Shown: positions 1-8,446 of the stretch, piece by piece
Position numbering within the stretch: position 1 is the stretch's first letter
Layout of the letters: every line of letters starts with the position of its first letter
Source of the DNA: a virus
Taxonomy: Duplodnaviria; Heunggongvirae; Uroviricota; Caudoviricetes
IMG/VR virus record: IMGVR_UViG_2684622670_000004
Location: 1-8,446 of that record
Length of the DNA: 8,446 nucleotides
Reading direction: 5' to 3' (one strand)
Notes under the pieces: generated by a model
What the model was told of the DNA's origin: nothing
The model's input: the letters and a program-made list of their open reading frames with translations, nothing else
Database searches by the model: none
Position numbers and translations under genes: made by a program

Positions 1-57
1 TGCACTCCATGTGTTAGCCGTGCTCAACAGGGGGATCTTTTCACCGCTTGTGCCAAG

Positions 58-83
58 TTCTCTTAAACCAAGGTTTAGGATTG
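58..83. other. Candidate cix/gix/hix-type crossover site of a DNA-inversion system (TTCTCTTAAACC-AA-GGTTTAGGATTG)
   Basis: Two imperfect inverted 12-bp half-sites (8/12 complementary) flank a central AA dinucleotide. From memory it fits the hix/gix pattern TTC..T.AAACC.AGGTTT.GGAT (about 19/26 identical to gixL as I recall it). It overlaps the stop codon (75-77) of the adjacent invertase gene. No partner site is present in the window. Confidence 0.5.
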
Positions 84-635
84 AAATGATGACGCAGGAA
101 ACTTTTTATAAAGCGTGGAAACAGCAACATCATAGATGATTGCAACCTGCTTACGGGGGATGCCATTCTCCAGCAATCGACGCATTTGCTGCCATGTTTC
201 TTCCGGGTATTTAGGTCTGCGGCCTCCTATTCGACCTTCTGCGCGAGCTGCATCAAGTCCAGCGCGTGTACGTTCAACGATAAGCTCGCGTTCCATTTCT
301 GCCAGTGCCCCCATTACGTGAAAGAAAAAGCGCCCCATTGGTGTACTGGTGTCGATGGAGTCAGTGAGACTCCGGAAGTTAATTCCTCTGTCACGTAGCT
401 CTTCCACCAGCACAACCAAGTGACGCATGCTGCGCCCAAGGCGATCTAACTTCCATACGATCAGGGTGTCACCTCTGGAAAGCATACGCAAAACCTTTTT
501 TAGCCCTGGGCGTTCAGCCTTTTTGCCGCTCGCCTTATCCTCAAAAATTAGCTCACATCCTGCGCTTTCAAGAGCGTTTCGTTGTAAAGCAGTGTTTTGT
601 TCATTTGTTGATACGCGTACATAGCCTATTAGCAT
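75..635 (-). CDS. cin: Serine recombinase, Hin/Gin/Cin/Pin-family DNA invertase (186 aa)
   Basis: N-terminal catalytic motif GYVRVSTNEQ with the active-site serine. Conserved WKLDRLGRS, SLTDSIDTS, MGRFFFHVMGALAEMERELIVERT and GRIGGR motifs, plus a C-terminal HTH (GIPRKQVAIIYDVAVSTLYKK). The symbol cin is inferred from the P1-like neighbourhood; the family call is firm, the exact orthologue (cin, gin or pin) is not. Confidence 0.9.
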   Translation of the reverse strand: MLIGYVRVSTNEQNTALQRNALESAGCELIFEDKASGKKAERPGLKKVLRMLSRGDTLIVWKLDRLGRSMRHLVVLVEELRDRGINFRSLTDSIDTSTPMGRFFFHVMGALAEMERELIVERTRAGLDAARAEGRIGGRRPKYPEETWQQMRRLLENGIPRKQVAIIYDVAVSTLYKKFPASSFQS

Positions 636-763
636 ATTTTCTGCTCACTATCGTTATTTATAGCAAGCTGCGGATTTTAATTAACAAAAAACCAGTATGT
701 GTGGAAATCACAAAGTACATACCGTTTCCCAATGAGATTTAATTCACTATTGAGGAAATAGTT
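636..763. promoter_or_regulatory. Divergent intergenic control region between the invertase gene and the lysis/dar operon
   Basis: AT-rich 128-bp spacer between divergent genes. Minus strand: possible -35 TTGTTA (plus coords 681-686) and -10 TATAAAT (655-661) with a 19-nt spacer, upstream of the invertase ATG. Plus strand: strong SD GAGGAA at 752-757, 6 nt before the ATG at 764. No clear sigma70 -35/-10 pair for the rightward operon, which would fit an activator-dependent late promoter. Confidence 0.3.
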
Positions 764-1045
764 ATGTTTGATTTCACAATAATGCTCCTCTCCATCCTTG
801 GCGGGGTGCATTCGTTTCTGAATGGGGTTCGTGAAAAACGTTACGAAGCGTCATGCAGGCAATTGATGGCCGAGTGTATTGCTGCCGTACTTGCAGGCTT
901 TATAGGCATGTATTTCGCGGAATATAAGGGTATGGATGAAAGTCTTCAGAATTGCGTGACTATTATTTGCAGCATCAATAACAGGCTCATTCTTGAAAAG
1001 TTACAAAGGATTATCGATTCGTACCTCAGTAGAAATGCCTCTTAA
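764..1045 (+). CDS. Small two-TM membrane protein, holin-like paralog of the downstream LydA-like gene (93 aa)
   Basis: ORF with a good SD. Two hydrophobic segments (FTIMLLSILGGVHSFLNGV and CIAAVLAGFIGMYFA). Clear paralogy to the next ORF (SILGGVHSFLNGVREKR vs SVIGGIGTFLMDVRDGRQ; VTIICSINN vs VTIASNN). Confidence 0.75.
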   Translation: MFDFTIMLLSILGGVHSFLNGVREKRYEASCRQLMAECIAAVLAGFIGMYFAEYKGMDESLQNCVTIICSINNRLILEKLQRIIDSYLSRNAS

Positions 1046-1086
1046 GCAACAAATGACCGGTTGAGAAGTTACTTTGCATACCATTA

Positions 1087-1106
1087 CCTCCTGACAACGT
1101 AGGAGG
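1087..1106 (+). promoter_or_regulatory. Possible SD-sequestering hairpin ahead of the LydA-like gene (CCTCCT-8 nt loop-AGGAGG)
   Basis: A 6-bp perfect stem in which the 3' arm is the AGGAGG Shine-Dalgarno of the GTG-initiated ORF at 1113. Could modulate holin translation. Seen only as sequence complementarity. Confidence 0.3.
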
Positions 1107-1112
1107 GAACTT

Positions 1113-1442
1113 GTGCTTGACACACAGGAATTAGCTCCAGTTGCTATTGCGCTCCTGCTTTCAGTAATTGGTGGGATAGGCACGTTCCTGATGGATGTCC
1201 GAGACGGTCGCCAGTCTGGCAATTTGTTGGGATTGGTTACGGAGATCTGTGTTGCAGTGACAGCTGGCGCGGTGGCGTACCTATTGGGGCAACATGAGGG
1301 CTGGGAGTTATCAATTACGTACTTAATGGTAACGATAGCCAGCAATAACGGTCATGAGGTGATTTCAGGGATGAAACGAGTGAATATCGATAGCATTCTG
1401 AATGTTCTTACAAGTTTGGTGAAAAAGGGAGGCGGGAAATGA
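1113..1442 (+). CDS. lydA: Holin, LydA-like (109 aa, GTG start)
   Basis: GTG start 6 nt after GGAGGG. Two to three predicted TM segments (LAPVAIALLLSVIGGIGTFLM, LLGLVTEICVAVTAGAVAYLLG). Its position immediately upstream of lydB-like/hdf/darA matches the P1 lysis-dar operon as I remember it. The stop overlaps the next start (ATGA). Confidence 0.75.
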   Translation: MLDTQELAPVAIALLLSVIGGIGTFLMDVRDGRQSGNLLGLVTEICVAVTAGAVAYLLGQHEGWELSITYLMVTIASNNGHEVISGMKRVNIDSILNVLTSLVKKGGGK

Positions 1443-1882
1443 TTGGCTGGGGTGTATGCGCTCTTGCGGCAGCCTTAGCTGATCGCTATTTGCTAAAACG
1501 CAAGGACATCACGAATTTAGAGCTTGGTGATGTGGAAATTAAACCGGGATTTATCCGGGTGCCGTTCAAATATCGGTCTAAATTCCCGTTTTTGCGCGGT
1601 GCAACGGTCAGATATTGGATCCGTGATGTTCAGAAGCCGACGACAGTGATTGAAGGCGAACAACGTTGCCTGACGTCGGCTGAACAGGGCGAAAACAGTG
1701 AATGGTTGTACATACCCACTGAATATATGGGTAAAGGAGAACGACTGTGGCATTTCAACGTCATGGTTACGCACGGCGACTCGTTCATTAACCCGTTGTA
1801 TCGGATTTTCCCTGTTACTCAGCAAATCCGCAGAAGTTACGTAATAAATCTCGCACAGGATGTGTCAGATGACGAAAAATAA
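1439..1882 (+). CDS. lydB: LydB-like holin antagonist / lysis regulator (147 aa)
   Basis: Start coupled to the lydA stop (ATGA overlap), with a GGGAGG SD. N-terminal hydrophobic segment (MIGWGVCALAAALA). Size and position match P1 LydB as recalled. Function inferred from synteny only. Confidence 0.65.
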   Translation: MIGWGVCALAAALADRYLLKRKDITNLELGDVEIKPGFIRVPFKYRSKFPFLRGATVRYWIRDVQKPTTVIEGEQRCLTSAEQGENSEWLYIPTEYMGKGERLWHFNVMVTHGDSFINPLYRIFPVTQQIRRSYVINLAQDVSDDEK

Positions 1883-2471
1883 GTATGCAACGGTCGATTT
1901 TGGCCAGGTTAATGAAAAGGGGCTGAAATCCCTTATCGCGGCGATCAATAAAACCGGTGTTACGGTAATTGAGGTTGACTCCAGCAACCGCGCAACAACG
2001 AAAGATGGCGTTAAAGTTAAAACCGCAAAGCTGGTTCTTAACGACGGACAAATTCTTGCCATACAGGTAAACGATACTGGTGATATATCGTCTGTGAAAC
2101 TGAATGGAAAAGCTATTCCTAATGCTCAATCGCCAGATATCAAGACGCTTGGTACCGTCATGGGGCAAGCGGCCCACAAAAACGCTGCAAAATTCCAGAA
2201 ATCACTGATCGCCAAAGCTAAACGTGTTGCCAATCCGGTAGACAAGAAACCGGCAGTTAAATCCAACTTTCAGCGCCTGCAAGAGGCAAAACAGCGGAAT
2301 GCTCAGGTGGTTGCCGCTTATAAATCCGCGCAGAACTCGGTGTCTTTCAATCAACAGCAGATCACTGATTTGCGGGCGAAGCTGGATAAGGAGACAGGTC
2401 GACTCAATAACGAAAAGGCCAGGAATGGCGAACTCAAACGCCGTCTTAAGCAACTGAAAGCAGGAAATTAA
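1860..2471 (+). CDS. hdf: Hdf, homolog of DarA fragment (203 aa; alternative start at 1869 gives 200 aa)
   Basis: Shares alignable blocks with the N-terminal third of the downstream 639-aa protein (LNDGQ-ILAIQ vs LSDGQ-TISIL; HKNAAKFQK vs EKNSAKFQR). C-terminal coiled-coil-like basic tail. The ATG at 1869 sits 9 nt after AGGA and is the more likely start. Confidence 0.75.
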   Translation: MCQMTKNKYATVDFGQVNEKGLKSLIAAINKTGVTVIEVDSSNRATTKDGVKVKTAKLVLNDGQILAIQVNDTGDISSVKLNGKAIPNAQSPDIKTLGTVMGQAAHKNAAKFQKSLIAKAKRVANPVDKKPAVKSNFQRLQEAKQRNAQVVAAYKSAQNSVSFNQQQITDLRAKLDKETGRLNNEKARNGELKRRLKQLKAGN

Positions 2472-2472
2472 C

Positions 2473-4392
2473 ATGGAACAGTTCAATATCAATAAAGGGG
2501 TGACGATTAAGCCGGGGCTTGACGTGCTTCCCCCGCCGGTGACTGATGATGAATATCGCGCATTAATGGCCGGTGAGGACCGCTATCTGATGACGGAATC
2601 CAACACCATGGAGGAAATCGAGGCTACGTTCTTCTATGACACGCCGATCCACTGGTGTACTACGGATTTACTGGAGGCGATTAGTTCTACTCGTTTGCAG
2701 TTACACCGGACCATGCAGGCATTTGTCCGGGCATTGAACCAGAAGCTTAATGGTACCGGAATCTCTGCGGGGAGTGATAAAACGGGGGATGTGGCCCAGA
2801 GCGGCACGCGAGCGATCGGCGGTGCTGAAATTGGCCGGGCACGTAACGTTAACGGGCTGCCGGTCCTGCCAGCCATTATTCCGCTCAGTGATGGTCAGAC
2901 TATCAGCATTCTGTTTCATAGCCTGACAGCGGAAAACCGGATCACCAATAGCGATACGCTGGTTGCTTTCCAGTTCTTACTGAATAAAAAAGACGTTACT
3001 CACACCGTTGCTCCGATGAGTGGACGTGATATGACGCTGGCACAGGTCACCATGAAACTTGCCAACCTTGCAGAGAAAAACTCGGCAAAATTCCAGCGTG
3101 CGCAGAAGAAGAAAAAAGCTCTTGTTGATGAAATAACCCAACTACAGGCTGACAGTGACCAGAAAGAGGATGCCATGAGCGACCTCGCGGATCAGGTGGC
3201 AGCGGTAGAAGGGCTGAAGGCAGATCTGGAGCAGAAAATTAACGCTGTTGCATCGGAAGCGGATTCTCTTTATGAAGAGAATGAGCGTTTGCAGACGGAG
3301 ATTGATCAGCTCAATCGCACAGGTGGGCGCGATACCATTGCTCCAGCGGGGATGACTGGTGGGCACTCGCGCGCGCTGACGGATCGCCTTGCCAGTATCA
3401 AAAATCGTATGCATATGAACGGGGAAGTGACGCTCAGTAATGGTGCATCAATGAAGCAATTCATTGAGGACGGCGAAGGGTATATCCAGTTAACCGATTC
3501 GGATGGCAGCGTGTACATGATCAAGGCTAAATCCATACAGGGTGTGGACATGGCAGATGCGATCGGCAAGCTGTTTAAAGCCTATAAAGCGGGTAATGTA
3601 TCGGAATATCTGGTCCAGCCAGAAGAACATAAACCAGAAAACGTCGAACCTGAACCAGCGGAGGATACCGGTAGCTCTTCGCCTGAACCAGAAGTCTCTG
3701 TAGGTGCATATCGATATGCCCTGCAAATGCGTCCGGCAGCCCCTGGCGCAATACCTGAAGGTAACAAAGCGATTCTGCCGCGCCCAGATGAAGGTGACCC
3801 GTATTATGAATATGCACGCTACGGCATTGCTACTTACGATACCCCGCTTTCTGATCAGCAAATGAGTGAGTACGACCTGAAGTTATTGCCTCGCGAGGAT
3901 TCTTTCGACTTCCTGGCGAAGACACTTACTAATGGTCCGTTTGGCAAATATGCACAAAAAGCTCTGGAGCTGGCCACCAGCTCACCAGACGAGTTCCGCG
4001 TAATGCTGAAAACTCAGTTTCAAAAAACTTTCCCCAATATTGCGTTTCCTGGGGGCGCAGGCACCGAGAAAATGGTGCAGAGCATGATCAATGCATTGCA
4101 GGCCGAAGTCGGTGAGATTACTCAACCAGAACCGGCCCCGGAACCGGCTGATGAAAAGGTTAGCGAAGCAGATGCAGAGGCTAATAAAGCCATTGAATAT
4201 CTCAATAACGTGATGGATATGCAAAGCACTGACATGGCGGAGATCCGCAACGCCAGGGGCAATGTCAGGGAAGCGATTGCTGCCCTTCAGGCTGCCGGAC
4301 GTTTTGATGAAAACGAAGAGCTGGTTAACGGCGCAGCTCGCCACCTGGCTGATCTGCTGGTAGCAATCCAGAAAGCGGGAGTAGCGGCATGA
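2473..4392 (+). CDS. darA: DarA-like capsid-internal anti-restriction / head morphogenesis protein (639 aa)
   Basis: ORF begins 1 nt after the hdf stop, with an AGGAAA SD. 639 aa matches my memory of P1 DarA. Has the internal Hdf-homologous segment, a central coiled-coil (KKKKALVDEITQLQ...EENERLQTEIDQLNR) and Pro/Glu-rich linkers (PENVEPEPAEDTGSSSPEPE; QPEPAPEPADEK). Confidence 0.8.
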   Translation: MEQFNINKGVTIKPGLDVLPPPVTDDEYRALMAGEDRYLMTESNTMEEIEATFFYDTPIHWCTTDLLEAISSTRLQLHRTMQAFVRALNQKLNGTGISAGSDKTGDVAQSGTRAIGGAEIGRARNVNGLPVLPAIIPLSDGQTISILFHSLTAENRITNSDTLVAFQFLLNKKDVTHTVAPMSGRDMTLAQVTMKLANLAEKNSAKFQRAQKKKKALVDEITQLQADSDQKEDAMSDLADQVAAVEGLKADLEQKINAVASEADSLYEENERLQTEIDQLNRTGGRDTIAPAGMTGGHSRALTDRLASIKNRMHMNGEVTLSNGASMKQFIEDGEGYIQLTDSDGSVYMIKAKSIQGVDMADAIGKLFKAYKAGNVSEYLVQPEEHKPENVEPEPAEDTGSSSPEPEVSVGAYRYALQMRPAAPGAIPEGNKAILPRPDEGDPYYEYARYGIATYDTPLSDQQMSEYDLKLLPREDSFDFLAKTLTNGPFGKYAQKALELATSSPDEFRVMLKTQFQKTFPNIAFPGGAGTEKMVQSMINALQAEVGEITQPEPAPEPADEKVSEADAEANKAIEYLNNVMDMQSTDMAEIRNARGNVREAIAALQAAGRFDENEELVNGAARHLADLLVAIQKAGVAA

Positions 4393-4754
4393 CACTATCA
4401 GCTATTGAGTTAATGGACCTCAGCGATAAGTTGGATGCTCTGATGTCCAAAGCTGCTACCGCGAGTGGCATGGAGTTGCTGGATATCAGCGATGAAATTG
4501 ACCAGATCATGCAACAGATGGGGTACGGCGCGTCCGGCGGCGGTAATGGCGAGGAAAAACAACCTTCGGTACATGATGGTATACCAAAACTGGTTGCTGA
4601 TTTCCTGGCTGATAAATTCGTCGATCAGAGCACCGATGCATTTATCGGTACGTTGCAGGACTTAAGTCAATATGTTGGCACATACATCGACCTGGACCAG
4701 GTTAAACAGCACACGGCGGTATGGATAGCCGCCAACATTAAAGAGGCAGCATAA
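4389..4754 (+). CDS. ddrA: DdrA-like small acidic protein downstream of darA (121 aa)
   Basis: Start overlaps the darA stop (ATGA), with a GGGAG SD. Acidic, with a Gly-rich loop (GYGASGGGNGEE). Position and size fit P1 ddrA as recalled. Confidence 0.65.
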   Translation: MTLSAIELMDLSDKLDALMSKAATASGMELLDISDEIDQIMQQMGYGASGGGNGEEKQPSVHDGIPKLVADFLADKFVDQSTDAFIGTLQDLSQYVGTYIDLDQVKQHTAVWIAANIKEAA

Positions 4755-4766
4755 GGCGTAACAGGG

Positions 4767-6455
4767 ATGAGTTTAAACGATCAGATAGTTATGACCACCA
4801 GCAGCGGATACAACGGTGTTGCGCCATATACCAGCTTGTTATTACATCGGGCATCCGGCATCAAAGATATTATTCACCTGATCCGGCTGCTTTCCCGCAC
4901 AGATCCCCAGGATGAACAGCTGGTACAAGTGCTTGCGCATTTTGTCCGAATCCCTGTTGCAGACGTGAAAAAATGGTGTCGATTATTCGGTATCAGCAAT
5001 TCGTTACTTCGCGGATTGTTAAATCACGCATCCTCCCTTGGGCGAGACGGCTTTGATGAGATAGCGCAGGCGATAAAAAACGGAGATATGCCACCAGCTA
5101 TTGACTGGTTTTCCATTCGCCCAACCAGGGTGAAAGCATTCCTTAGCGCGGCGCAATCAGCATCACCATTGGCAGAAATGGTTCAGAGGTTGTCGCTCAT
5201 ATTCACAGATCATACCGCGTTTGGTGATCTGGCTCTGGACGAGATGAAAGAAGCCGCCATTCAGTGGGCCGATCAACAAAATGAGGTTAACTCTGACTTC
5301 TTGCCAGCATTCAGGAAGGCCGTTAGTAAAGCGGATGATGCCCGTGGAATTATGAAGGCATTTAAGGCATTGCAAAGTCGGGTTAATAAACATGCCGGTG
5401 ATATCGATGGGGTAACGGCGGAAGGCCGGGATATCCTGAAAGAGCACGGCATAACGCCAGAATTTATTGATGAGATCAGGACGGATATGCAGCGTGAGGT
5501 CGTATCGTCTCTGCAAATCGTAGCCAGGGCGTTGGCGGATGCTAATCCGAAGAGTGCGGCCATTGTTAACCGGGTTATTGGTGATATTGAAGCATCTGAG
5601 GGCATGGGGGCACTGAAACTCTTCCTTTCGCGAGCGTTTAATCCTAACGGCAATATTCTTCCCGGCATTATTGGTGAGGCTAAAAAGTATGTCAGTGAAG
5701 AAGAACTTGAGCAGCTTGACCAACTACTTAAGCGATTCTCATATAACCCGCAGACACGCTGGCAAATGAATCAGCGAGGTATGGGTTTGGTCCACGAGAA
5801 AGTGTTATCTGCCATGAACAGTGCGATCGCAAACTCATCTGTATCTGAAGAAAAAGCTCTTGAGTGGGCCGACTCTTTTATCACGGAAGAAGTGGAAGAA
5901 GCCCGCGCTGGACAGAATGGTGGGATAGACCTGCGCAAGGAACTTGCTGATATTTATCGCCTGAGCGGCGGGAAAATATCGACCTTATCAAAGGTAGTTC
6001 ACCACCAGGGAAGGGCATATGCAAATCTAAATGGTGTTGTTGCTGTCAATTTGAACGATGAAAATGCAAGTGCACTGTGGCACGAGCTGGGTCATCATCT
6101 TGAGTACAGTAACCCTGGTTTGTTAGAGAAAGCCCGGTCATTCCTGAAGGCCAATGTTGAAGGGGATAAACCATCTTTCGTTAATATCGGTGGGCGTGGC
6201 AAGCCTGAATGGTGCTTCAGATCTCAATTGAGTAATATTTATATGGCGAAGGTATACCCGCCAGTCTCAGTAAGTAACACCGGGAAAATTCGGCAGAAAT
6301 CACCGACTATTTCCAAAACGTCAGCAACGGAAGTATTCTCTATGGCTCTTCAGTTGTATCATGACAAAGAGGCCGCTGCCGCATCACTGATGAATGGTGA
6401 CGGATTGCTGGAACTGTTATTAGGTGTGGCAAAGGAGCTAAATAATGCAGATTAA
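4767..6455 (+). CDS. HExxH-motif putative zinc metallopeptidase in the ddrB position of the dar operon (562 aa)
   Basis: Long ORF with operon-consistent codon usage. Near the C-terminus is WHELGHHLEY (HExxH zincin signature) with downstream Glu candidates (LLEKARSF; NVEGD) for the third ligand. I do not recognise the N-terminal two-thirds. I cannot confirm orthology to P1 DdrB from memory. Confidence 0.7.
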   Translation: MSLNDQIVMTTSSGYNGVAPYTSLLLHRASGIKDIIHLIRLLSRTDPQDEQLVQVLAHFVRIPVADVKKWCRLFGISNSLLRGLLNHASSLGRDGFDEIAQAIKNGDMPPAIDWFSIRPTRVKAFLSAAQSASPLAEMVQRLSLIFTDHTAFGDLALDEMKEAAIQWADQQNEVNSDFLPAFRKAVSKADDARGIMKAFKALQSRVNKHAGDIDGVTAEGRDILKEHGITPEFIDEIRTDMQREVVSSLQIVARALADANPKSAAIVNRVIGDIEASEGMGALKLFLSRAFNPNGNILPGIIGEAKKYVSEEELEQLDQLLKRFSYNPQTRWQMNQRGMGLVHEKVLSAMNSAIANSSVSEEKALEWADSFITEEVEEARAGQNGGIDLRKELADIYRLSGGKISTLSKVVHHQGRAYANLNGVVAVNLNDENASALWHELGHHLEYSNPGLLEKARSFLKANVEGDKPSFVNIGGRGKPEWCFRSQLSNIYMAKVYPPVSVSNTGKIRQKSPTISKTSATEVFSMALQLYHDKEAAAASLMNGDGLLELLLGVAKELNNAD

Positions 6456-6765
6456 AATCGCAGCGCCATTAGGCGGAGATGCCATTATCGAATTTGATGA
6501 TAATGAAGAAGTTTCCGGGCGTTTAAGCATTATCTCCGGTGACATTACCGAGGACATGATCGCTGAAGCCATAGCTGGGGCAAATCCCAATAGCTATATG
6601 GGATTCGTTAACACCCTTGATGCTCCCGCAAGTGATGTTCTCCGAACGCTGCATCTTTACGCTGGCTGGTTTGTTGATTGGCCAGCAGTAGATGGTGGCG
6701 ATGAGGATGATGATGACGATGAAGAGGGTTTTAGTGATGAAACAGTCAACCAACTCTTGTATTGA
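6445..6765 (+). CDS. Hyperacidic small protein, possible DNA-mimic-type anti-restriction factor (106 aa)
   Basis: AAGGAG SD 8 nt before the ATG. Overlaps the preceding stop by 11 nt. About 27 Asp/Glu against 3 Lys/Arg, with a C-terminal DGGDEDDDDDEEGFSDE tract. Last gene of the operon. Confidence 0.7.
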   Translation: MQIKIAAPLGGDAIIEFDDNEEVSGRLSIISGDITEDMIAEAIAGANPNSYMGFVNTLDAPASDVLRTLHLYAGWFVDWPAVDGGDEDDDDDEEGFSDETVNQLLY

Positions 6766-6894
6766 CAGGAATTGGCATAGAATTGATTGTTCAAATTTCA
6801 TCCATCACATAGACGACTTCATGTTATTTGCCTGATAATTATGGCCTTAATAACCCATGTATATCTTTTGGGTTATATTCTTATCTTTAACAAG

Positions 6895-6940
6895 GTTATA
6901 AGAGCGACAATGATAAATTTATCACTATCGCTCTTATAAC
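6895..6940. repeat. 46-bp near-perfect palindrome (21 of 23 base pairs complementary, no spacer)
   Basis: GTTATAAGAGCGACAATGATAAAT / ATTTATCACTATCGCTCTTATAAC. The only mismatches are at 6908/6927 and 6910/6925. Followed by TCTTTGTT. Lies 130 bp downstream of the operon's last stop codon. Confidence 0.85.
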
Positions 6941-6968
6941 TCTTTGTTAGCTATAGCTTTAAACAAAT

Positions 6969-7175
6969 TTAGTTTTGAGGCAATGCAACAAAAGTCAGCT
7001 CTTGATCTTTGATTAATGCTTTTGTTTGTTTGGATGTAATTCCCACTTTAGTTTTTACATCATTGTGGAGCTTCTTATACGCTTTTATTTCATCTGCTGT
7101 ATATCGGAAGCCATTTGCACTGTTACTGGACAGTTGAAGTGCGATTACGTCATCACTGACACCCGCATCGCTTAG
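6969..7175 (-). pseudogene. Start-less 68-codon protein-like open frame, possible remnant of a truncated gene
   Basis: Minus-strand frame translating to LSDAGVSDDVIALQLSSNSANGFRYTADEIKAYKKLHNDVKTKVGITSKQTKALIKDQELTFVALPQN*. It is bounded upstream by an in-frame TAG (plus 7176-7178) and contains no ATG. All three upstream frames are stop-rich. Composition is not typical of random AT-rich translation. Confidence 0.25.
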
Positions 7176-7469
7176 CTATGCGGGTAATAGTGTGGCCTGC
7201 GCGAGTGTTTGTGGTGGATATTTTGTCTAAGAAATTGTTCAGTTTTGCCATTGTTTACAACCTCTTACTTGAGTTTATTGCAAGTAGAATTGCTACTATT
7301 CTTTTGCCTCAACGAATCACAATGTACTGGAATAAGAAACTATGAGCAATACTTACGCTTTGCGAATACAGAAGATGAATAATCAACTTATTACTAAAAT
7401 GTTAATAATATTATTCTGTTACATAGTGTTCGCTATAACAATCGGGAGTTGAATGCTAATTCAATAAAT

Positions 7470-7497
7470 AAAGAACCCGCCAATTGGCGGGTTCTTT
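7470..7497. terminator. Bidirectional rho-independent terminator (AAAGAACCCGCC-AATT-GGCGGGTTCTTT)
   Basis: Perfect 12-bp GC-containing stem with a 4-nt loop. Flanked by a T-run on the plus strand (TTTTTA) and by ATTTATTTATT on the minus strand. Directly abuts the stop codon of the convergent 264-aa gene. Confidence 0.75.
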
Positions 7498-8292
7498 TTA
7501 ATCACTTTCCACTTCTTCCGTGGTGTTTTCTTGCAGTTCTGTTAATGCAGCACGACACAGGTTCCGGGCCTTGGCTATAGCCACACTTTTTACCTCATCC
7601 GTCATTGTGCAGGTAATGTACTGATCGAGTTCTTCAGCTCGGATGATGCTTTTCCCAATCATAAACTCTATTTGCCAGAGCAGATCGGCATCCATCGTCA
7701 GTATTTCAGCCTGGCCTTCTGGGCCTGCGGGGAAGCAAACATAAGACTGTTTTCCCAGGCCGATAACTCGACAACTTGCTTCAAGAATTGCGCGCTTGAG
7801 GTCTGACTTTGTAACGGAAACAGGTTGGTTTTCACCAGTGATTACGCCGTTGACATGGAAGTGGAAGGGCATGTAGCTTGAAATTCGCTCTACTTTCCAT
7901 ACGCCAGCAAGCGATCCTTCATGCAGCACAATGGGGGTAACCGCGAGTTTCATCTCACCATATAACTGCTGGCAGATAGCTGGATTGCTGAATACATCCA
8001 AAGGCTCACATTCAAACAGCGGCGCAATCTGCATGAGGTCCATCATGGTCATCCCTGGGGTCCGAGCAGTAATGAATTTGCGCATGCCAGTATCCATTGT
8101 GCGCCAGATAGCCATACCATGCTTTTTGCTCACTTCTTCAGTAAAACCAAGGTGGCACATGATGGTCTTTTCGATAGCCAGATCAGAGATAGAAACCTTT
8201 TCGCCTGGCACTCCATCATTATTGATGGTCACTTCGACACTCTGGCCATTACGTAGGCGGTATTGAATGGTTTTAGTATTTTGTGCTGTCAT
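7498..8292 (-). CDS. Hypothetical protein, function unknown (264 aa)
   Basis: Long uninterrupted ORF ending at the terminator. Weak SD (GAGAAAAGA) 14 nt after the stop of an upstream partial ORF, suggesting an operon. Contains His-rich segments (PIVLHEGS; MPFHFHVNG) but no motif I can assign to a family. Confidence 0.7.
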   Translation of the reverse strand: MTAQNTKTIQYRLRNGQSVEVTINNDGVPGEKVSISDLAIEKTIMCHLGFTEEVSKKHGMAIWRTMDTGMRKFITARTPGMTMMDLMQIAPLFECEPLDVFSNPAICQQLYGEMKLAVTPIVLHEGSLAGVWKVERISSYMPFHFHVNGVITGENQPVSVTKSDLKRAILEASCRVIGLGKQSYVCFPAGPEGQAEILTMDADLLWQIEFMIGKSIIRAEELDQYITCTMTDEVKSVAIAKARNLCRAALTELQENTTEEVESD

Positions 8293-8306
8293 AGTCTTTT
8301 CTCTGC

Positions 8307-8446
8307 TTAAAAACTGATGTATTGCGCCTTCAGGTTGGTTAGGAATGTTTTCCCACCAGCGAAAGCAATATCTCGGGGTGTTCTATTCGTTGTAGAGTAG
8401 GCCTCTGGTTTGAAGTCATCTCCCCAGCAGCCCCTCGTCAAACCGT
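8307..8446 (-). CDS. 3' end of a minus-strand gene truncated by the window edge (last 45 codons plus stop)
   Basis: Open frame from the window edge to TAA (plus 8307-8309), translating to ...GLTRGCWGDDFKPEAYSTTNRTPRDIAFAGGKTFLTNLKAQYISF*. It is 14 nt upstream of the 264-aa gene start. No start codon is visible because the 5' end lies outside the window. Confidence 0.4.
   Translation of the reverse strand, partial: GLTRGCWGDDFKPEAYSTTNRTPRDIAFAGGKTFLTNLKAQYISF

Follow-up and report, generated by a model that had tools for sequence, protein, structure and literature searches.

A ParB-less deletion allele of phage P1 ddrB keeps a predicted zincin peptidase that may be paired with the small protein Hxr

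Which gene of a P1-like prophage encodes a 562-residue protein with a zincin-type peptidase motif within the dar operon, and what might that peptidase be for? The stretch of DNA analysed here, referred to as the window, comprises 8446 bp (positions 1 to 8446 of IMG/VR virus record IMGVR_UViG_2684622670_000004) and is a P1-like plasmid prophage with 96-97% identity to phage P1 and to P1-like plasmid prophages. The open reading frame (ORF) that raises the question lies at positions 4767 to 6455 on the plus strand, and an initial annotation, made from the letters of the sequence, could not say whether it was P1 DdrB or a replacement cargo gene. Comparison with P1 leaves virtually no doubt that the ORF is an in-frame deletion allele of P1 ddrB from which the ParB module is missing, rather than new cargo.

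The DNA alignment with the P1 locus (L001) runs along both sides of a single gap. Window positions 1-4803 correspond to L001 501-5302 and positions 4809-6720 to L001 6607-8518, at 97% identity, and 1304 bp of P1 are absent inside ddrB between window positions 4803 and 4809. Within the late dar operon the ORF sits between ddrA and hxr, with 97% DNA identity to P1 on either side, as expected of the P1 ddrB orthologue. At the protein level, residues 1-12 match residues 1-12 of P1 DdrB (YP_006491, 995 aa) and residues 15-562 (548 aa) are collinear with P1 DdrB 448-995 at 96.5% identity, while P1 residues 13-447 are absent, a net loss of 433 codons that stays in frame. The deleted segment holds the Pfam domain ddrB-ParB (PF18763; P1 aa 36-167, E 2e-39), its linker and the antisense gene iddB, and ddrB-ParB was not detected by Pfam in the 562-aa window protein. 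Similarity to the 995-aa protein is therefore not collinear over its full length and, because only residues 1-12 and 448-995 are present, we file the gene as a ddrB deletion allele rather than as canonical DdrB. The alignment to P1 DdrB that the initial annotation had proposed thus decides for DdrB and against replacement cargo, and the N-terminal ~430 residues that had seemed unfamiliar prove not to be foreign, being DdrB's own middle region.

The architecture of the allele follows from this alignment. The retained first 12 codons (MSLNDQIVMTTS; positions 4767 to 4802, plus strand) are common to the long DdrB at ~77% DNA identity, and the same head was found in the short alleles that we read. 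They are followed by the deletion junction, ..TS|SG|YNG.. (4803 to 4811, plus strand), and by a middle region (aa 15-334; 4809 to 5768, plus strand) that is all-helical in the full-length AlphaFold2 model, with a predicted local distance difference test score (pLDDT) of 40-95, and that has no family match in Pfam or NCBIfam. Simple microhomology was looked for at the deletion junction in P1. The junction codons of the short allele are AGC GGA TAC against GGT AGT TAC in P1, and a clean repeat-mediated deletion from a P1-like parent cannot be shown.

The short allele is not peculiar to the window. Its junction is contiguous in 21 of 483 P1-like plasmids in PLSDB, from Escherichia albertii, E. 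coli and E. fergusonii, and in 15 further E. albertii plasmids in which gldA is inserted between ddrA and ddrB, which places the allele in ~7% of P1-like plasmids. The allele was also present in 9 of the 480 E. coli genomes that matched and in 6 of the best 80 P1-like loci in IMG/VR, and the three phage records inspected all carry the long form. Every short copy that was read (12/12) is an intact 562-aa ORF with an identical TSSGY junction. Pairwise ratios of nonsynonymous to synonymous substitution rates (dN/dS) among six short alleles are 0.13-0.20, compared with 0.21 between long alleles and 0.10-0.24 between short and long. Over the retained part the short alleles are not monophyletic, since the short allele of E. 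coli plasmid L006 differs by 9 nt from the long allele JL22 and by 49 nt from the window, and identity between the short and long forms, which is 97% in the flanks, falls to ~77% over the first 36 nt of the gene. The non-monophyly and the divergent head between conserved flanks together indicate an old polymorphism that has been moved by recombination, and not a recent accident. Furthermore, a distant P1-like element (locus L008; protein P0021, 45% identity) encodes, in the corresponding operon position, a native short DdrB of 558 aa that begins at this same module boundary.

These observations bear directly on whether the short ORF is a gene at all. In three E. coli plasmids (L005 3238-4896, L006 3235-4896 and L007 2115-3773), the Prokaryotic Genome Annotation Pipeline (PGAP) gives short ddrB a pseudogene flag with the label 'incomplete; partial in the middle of a contig; missing N-terminus' and places the start ~30 nt inside the ORF, and for the E. 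albertii plasmids PLSDB lists no coding sequence at the site. A decaying, functionless remnant of ddrB would agree with this annotation, with ddrB being non-essential in P1 (PMC10695390) and with the presence of other deletion forms at the locus, such as truncated ORFs and a DarA::DdrB fusion (P0016, described below). It would not account for a deletion that is exactly in frame with the start codon and upstream context kept, for one junction in intact copies across three Escherichia species, for a dN/dS equal to that of the long alleles or for the native short form of the divergent element, and we regard decay as very unlikely. The short allele is maintained under purifying selection, and it is very likely to be functional. 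A ParB-less ddrB as a recurring natural variant appears to be new.

In the gldA-bearing plasmids the glycerol dehydrogenase gene lies on the opposite strand between ddrA and short ddrB (L004 4614-5717 in E. albertii p06-3542, and ~14 similar plasmids); short ddrB has nevertheless kept its full 562-aa ORF there, with a slightly altered head (MCLNDHTVMATSSGY). Another form of the locus, P0016 (693 aa, 74 contigs), is a recurrent in-frame fusion of DarA(1-~345) to the C-terminal ~348 aa of DdrB, joined at ..QLTDPDGS|VTAEGRD.. and named DarA in UniRef, which deletes the darA C-terminus, ddrA and the N-terminal half of ddrB and keeps the zincin.

What the short allele retains is a predicted peptidase. 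The C-terminal zincin domain, of the metallopeptidase (MPTase) type described for polyvalent proteins, spans residues ~335-560 (5769 to 6446, plus strand), and the WHELGHHLEY motif that had been noticed near the C-terminus of the 562-aa ORF is indeed present, at residues 438-447 and 123 residues from the end. With HMMER, 287 relatives (cut-off E ≤ 1e-3) were found among 1.84 billion representative proteins, and nearly all of them match just residues ~335-560. Among the matches listed, HExxH is present in each relative that spans the domain, mostly in the form [WF]HExGHHxE. The domain alignments show no variation at seven residues (R416, H439, E440, H443, E481, Y492 and E522) and little or none at two more (E446 and Y497), and the zincin domain of the short allele has every family-invariant residue. 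Within HELGH (aa 439-443; 6081 to 6095, plus strand), H439 and H443 are predicted to be zinc ligands and E440 the catalytic base, with E446 (6102 to 6104, plus strand) extending the motif to HExxHxxE. The third ligand would more likely be E522 (6330 to 6332, plus strand), which opens an invariant TEVxS(M) helix and could form the 'glutamate helix', than E481 (6207 to 6209, plus strand), which lies 38 residues after H443 and is a candidate third ligand or pocket residue; E522 is favoured because of the gluzincin pattern set out in PMC5512222.

Named families gave no purchase on this domain. The window protein matches no Pfam family at E ≤ 1, the MPTase-PolyVal model is not significant on the DdrB-zincin clade, and sequence searches of NCBIfam and the PDB gave no significant match to the zincin domain. 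When 35 domain sequences were compared with Pfam, there were sub-threshold matches to other zincin families only. An ImmA/IrrE (M78) assignment was rejected since Peptidase_M78 was not matched, DUF4157 since eCIS_core matches 1 of the 35 at E 0.14, and neither sequence similarity nor close structural similarity to ArdC-C, SprT or Wss1 was found. Of the profile searches suggested in the initial annotation, those against SprT, ArdC-C, ImmA and DUF4157 gave no significant match, and the zincin reading holds to the extent that sequence and fold can tell.

The fold is clear in the model of the domain alone, which is confident (pLDDT 94.9, predicted template modelling score 0.91) and places H439, E440 and H443 inside a helix (434-448). 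A fold search with this domain model gave only zincins as top matches, and the model itself combines a beta-sheet with active-site helices in the zincin manner. The full-length model was less informative, as the long helical region swamped its Foldseek search of the PDB, which returned noise (best E 1.9), and a search of viral structures in BFVD found only uncharacterised phage proteins. As modelled, the domain has a gluzincin fold that is closest to M34 (the Pro-Pro endopeptidases and anthrax lethal factor) and MtfA. The structure prediction thus agrees with the earlier reading of a zincin motif in a catalytic-type setting and, because the motif is conserved and its context is of that kind, neither of the two outcomes named there as grounds for giving up the reading was obtained. 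Judged by its conserved residues, the zincin is likely to be catalytically competent.

The zincin reading is itself already published, and is not new. The P1 record annotates DdrB as a 'possible metallopeptidase', Lenart 2013 lists the DdrB family as a suspected zincin (PMC3650047), and Iyer 2017 describes the C-terminal MPTase of DdrB (PMC5512222); the Gonzales 2022 supplement gives the HHpred result for DdrB as 'ND' and has no peptide map. An entirely different role can also be drawn from the literature, in which DdrB is a structural adaptor for the ordered loading of Dar proteins and HExxH a non-catalytic relic. The label 'aids DarB addition to capsid' (PMC9024508, Table 1), the ordered incorporation of Dar proteins (PMC12810830) and the long helical region would all suit such an adaptor. 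However, conservation of HExxH and of six more residues is complete or almost complete among the 287 relatives, down to ~25% identity, and because such constancy is not expected of a relic we consider a purely structural role highly improbable.

If the zincin is active, the question becomes what it cuts. Iyer 2017 proposed that cleavage of DdrB by its MPTase precedes packaging and lets the ParB fragment into the head (PMC5512222), and on a strict form of this proposal the zincin would cleave DdrB itself, the N-terminal ParB fragment would be the packaged cargo and the short allele would have nothing to release. Processing of P1 DdrB to ~76 kDa ahead of packaging has been reported (PMC5512222). 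The domain context of the homologues is also suggestive, since some are long multidomain proteins with 2-3 zincin-domain copies interspersed, and the co-domains found by Pfam among 76 homologues are ddrB-ParB (12), Phage_Mu_F (6) and InPase (1). Most of these homologues are without any other Pfam domain, however, and in most members of the clade, relatives of which are encoded on at least 421 IMG/VR contigs, no second enzymatic domain that could be released is recognisable. Moreover, the ParB-less allele is conserved under purifying selection, and cis-cleavage alone does not explain the separate conserved partner gene and secretion-toxin context described below. Because the short allele is maintained, a native short form exists and ParB occurs in 12 of the 76 homologues, the peptidase module seems to be kept for more than freeing ParB. 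Pure self-processing is thereby weakened and in our view unlikely, and the weight shifts somewhat toward a role beyond it, in which the job of the zincin would not be merely to cut its own ParB domain free. The further step, that the zincin acts in trans rather than purely on itself, may well be correct, though we would stop short of calling it probable.

A candidate for a second player lies immediately downstream. The hxr gene (6445 to 6765, plus strand) encodes 106 residues with an acidic C-terminal tail, and it shares its first 11 nt with the end of ddrB. P1 annotation describes hxr as 'possible repressor; homolog of Xre'. Hxr shows no helix-turn-helix (HTH) match and no Pfam family at E ≤ 1, and its family alignment is without HTH-like conservation, which leaves the Xre label unsupported. 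Distant homologues regularly show the arrangement of ddrB and hxr, with an overlapping ORF of ~100 aa downstream of the zincin gene. A survey of 112 diverse IMG/VR loci yielded 58 unique small downstream ORFs, of which BLAST placed 25 in a cluster with Hxr, tying it to 24 members downstream of DdrB-proximal zincins, and 27 in a second cluster (S). Comparison of the two cluster profiles with hhalign gave 85% probability (P 6e-6, 72 collinear columns), against 51% on the first alignment.

The association of this small domain with the zincin is close. Of the unique zincin genes, 50 have the domain at the C-terminus and 54 carry a C-terminal extension; a gene starting with an H or S domain comes next after 41 of the former and 36 of the latter. 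As a control, the partner family was matched against 2939 six-frame ORFs of the 112 loci, and all 88 matches lie directly after a zincin gene, the family being encoded there in 88 of the 112 loci and at no other place in them. A scan of genome contigs, limited by a degenerate pattern, gave 5 loci; the partner is present at three cyanobacterial genome loci that lay outside the model-building set, and reverse look-up from a partner protein leads to a zincin gene upstream. In many phages the partner domain stands at the head of a longer protein, where it takes up the first ~100 residues and precedes an acidic linker and then InPase, PBECR3 or LPD3. The partner family has no Pfam model and no solved relative, its members are all named 'hypothetical protein', and a text search of Iyer 2017 (PMC5512222) did not find the downstream domain. 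These patterns suggest that hxr belongs to an uncharacterised family of ~100 aa that is paired with the DdrB-clade zincin as a peptidase-partner module, which appears to be new, and we lean slightly towards a functional pairing of the zincin with Hxr.

At loci L094-L149, many zincin proteins of 600-650 aa have a further conserved C-terminal extension of ~150 aa, with the motif ..GxYRVFSGxFRN..RNAKGY.. and no Pfam match. The possibility that this extension is a fused partner domain was rejected, as it does not match the partner family.

One locus places the pair in a very different setting. P0193 (394 aa), which joins a WXG/LXG-like N-terminus to a DdrB-type zincin, belongs to a type VII secretion toxin locus (L013, 2190-8896, from Joint Genome Institute (JGI) metagenome 3300081625) that encodes an EssC-like FtsK_SpoIIIE protein, WXG100, the zincin, a 100-aa partner in immunity position and then Ntox50 and the immunity protein MafI2. 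Separately, in Acinetobacter lwoffii (L259 and L260, 4001-4276) a 91-aa member of the partner family has no zincin gene upstream and adjoins a Type ISP restriction-modification enzyme of ~1640 aa in an AlpA/DUF927 integrative island, where it resembles an orphan immunity gene.

It could be argued from these contexts that the zincin is an injected anti-defence effector, delivered with the DNA to degrade a host restriction or immunity protein, and that Hxr serves the producing cell as inhibitor of, or immunity protein against, the zincin. As a Dar protein, DdrB is located inside the head (PMC12810830, PMC9024508), Hxr has not been detected in virions, and the closest folds to the zincin are secreted endopeptidases and toxins. 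The head of P0193 and the immunity position of its partner beside Ntox50 and MafI2 point the same way, as does the Acinetobacter gene beside a restriction enzyme, which is where orphan immunity genes are found. Conversely, there is only one toxin-locus example, and the partner domain is N-terminal in large cargo proteins of many phages, which would be unusual for an immunity protein. Loss of ddrB, moreover, reportedly makes P1 less and not more sensitive to EcoB and EcoK restriction, a mild effect in an unexpected direction. We therefore hold such an injected-effector role to be somewhat unlikely.

On balance, the best overall explanation is a maintained ParB-less allele with an active zincin that pairs with Hxr and does not serve self-processing only. 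P1 DdrB has been detected in virions with 39 peptides and 59.5% coverage (PMC9024508), and its packaging depends on DarA and Hdf within an ordered incorporation of Dar proteins (PMC12810830). By analogy, short DdrB would be made late and packaged into the head by the same DarA/Hdf-dependent route. The zincin and the Hxr-type domain would form a two-part module in which Hxr docks on or inhibits the peptidase. Because the small domain heads cargo proteins elsewhere, the peptidase probably either recognises it and cuts behind it or is kept inactive by it until delivery, and such a module would act on partner or Dar proteins, and possibly on proteins of the host. An inhibitor or immunity role for Hxr is favoured by the secretion locus, by the orphan gene and by the absence of Hxr from virions, while its fusion to cargo proteins favours that of a cleaved docking tag.

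Several points weigh against this explanation, and the restriction phenotype and the dispensability of ddrB in P1 mentioned above are among them. A capsid-targeting signal of DdrB could lie in the deleted residues 13-447. Our literature search found no zinc-binding or peptidase experiment for any member of the DdrB-zincin clade. The putative homology of Hxr to the S cluster comes from the profile-profile comparison, with its lower probability on the first alignment; HMMER with the S-family hidden Markov model (HMM) did not detect Hxr, and an iterative HMM search from Hxr alone likewise gave no link. The secretion-toxin context is that of a single locus. Finally, Hxr is absent from the P1 virion proteins found with LC-MS/MS, because of which the pairing of DdrB with Hxr may be confined to the producing cell.

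The ParB-less allele amounts to a natural separation-of-function mutant, which makes the role of the zincin, in ParB release or in a Dar role of its own, directly testable. It also exposes two problems of annotation. Short ddrB is wrongly flagged as a pseudogene in spite of the purifying selection on it, and hxr has been labelled a possible Xre-like repressor for twenty years where it would instead be the local member of an unannotated zincin-linked family found at proteobacterial, cyanobacterial and other phage loci. The link between zincin and Hxr offers a concrete hypothesis on the control or cargo loading of head-packaged peptidases, of relevance to P1-based protein delivery and to polyvalent anti-defence proteins. 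A broader and speculative view, to which we give tentative credence at most, is that the DdrB-type zincin and the Hxr-type domain constitute a widespread phage module, also taken up by a type VII toxin locus, in which the small domain is a lock or docking tag, the zincin acts in trans and P1 hxr is no repressor. Were this true, orphan Hxr-like genes in bacterial defence islands would be host counter-measures, and the ParB-less P1 allele would be the minimal natural form of the module.

The remainder of the window follows the annotated P1 record, with the gene order cin-lydC-lydA-lydB-hdf-darA-ddrA-ddrB-hxr followed by an AT-rich stretch and an isaA-like gene, and its nearest records are E. albertii plasmids, with 99.2% identity across the junction region. 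By comparison with the P1 record, cin lies at positions 75-635 on the minus strand. The late promoter LPdar (1066 to 1084, plus strand) is identical to the annotated P1 site at 19 of 19 positions and lies upstream of the dar genes, which are all on one strand: hdf (1860 to 2471; DarA_N domain, Pfam 1e-20), darA (2473 to 4392; Pfam DarA_N 8e-41 and DarA_C 6e-17), ddrA (4389 to 4754; PHROG 'DdrA-like') and short ddrB, which starts with ATG and matches PHROG 2299 over positions 445-995. The initial annotation was right to place the ORF in a Dar operon, hdf, darA and ddrA preceding it on the same strand downstream of LPdar. Since hdf carries DarA_N, hdf and darA share an N-terminal fold, an observation that agrees with the published DarA-Hdf pairing. 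Beyond hxr, positions 6766-7497 form an AT-rich stretch (36-40% GC, ~730 bp) without a P1 counterpart, where P1 carries isaB and IS1; the same sequence occurs in phage vB_EcoM-Ro157c2YLVW, and a 95-aa minus-strand ORF is annotated in the corresponding stretch (L009 7416-7703). The isaA-like ORF (7498-8292, minus strand) encodes 264 aa (PHROG 2326) against the 320 aa of P1 IsaA, and the E. albertii plasmids annotate an identical 264-aa form.

Comparison with known systems helps to place the short protein. P1 DdrB shares with it the slot between ddrA and hxr and an identical HELGHH site, and differs in its length (995 against 562 aa) and in having residues 13-447 with ddrB-ParB, the linker and antisense iddB. 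The polyvalent MPTases of Iyer 2017 (PMC5512222), for which P1 DdrB is the paper's own example, resemble the DdrB zincin in their HExxH helix and downstream conserved Glu, and the DdrB clade behaves as such a polyvalent domain in occurring with ddrB-ParB, MuF and InPase and sometimes in several copies per protein; unlike them, the zincin of short DdrB stands without another enzymatic domain. The ArdC C-terminal metalloprotease and SprT/Wss1 offer a likeness of arrangement, as there too a zincin is joined to an anti-restriction protein, in that case one of conjugative plasmids, that travels with incoming DNA (PMC5512222). The structural neighbours, namely PPEP-2 and PPEP-3 of M34, anthrax lethal factor and MtfA (M90), are 13-16% identical to the DdrB zincin with no sequence-level match, and are secreted or cytoplasmic bacterial enzymes rather than virion proteins; in contrast to M34 and MtfA, the DdrB clade has a large conserved insert between the active-site helices, which carries the invariant E481 and Y492 and the near-invariant Y497. 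Finally, the toxin-immunity and effector-adaptor pairs of polymorphic toxin systems resemble zincin-hxr in coupling an enzyme gene to an overlapping small gene of a co-varying family, whereas the small domain, unlike that of toxin-immunity pairs, is in many phages fused N-terminally to large cargo proteins.

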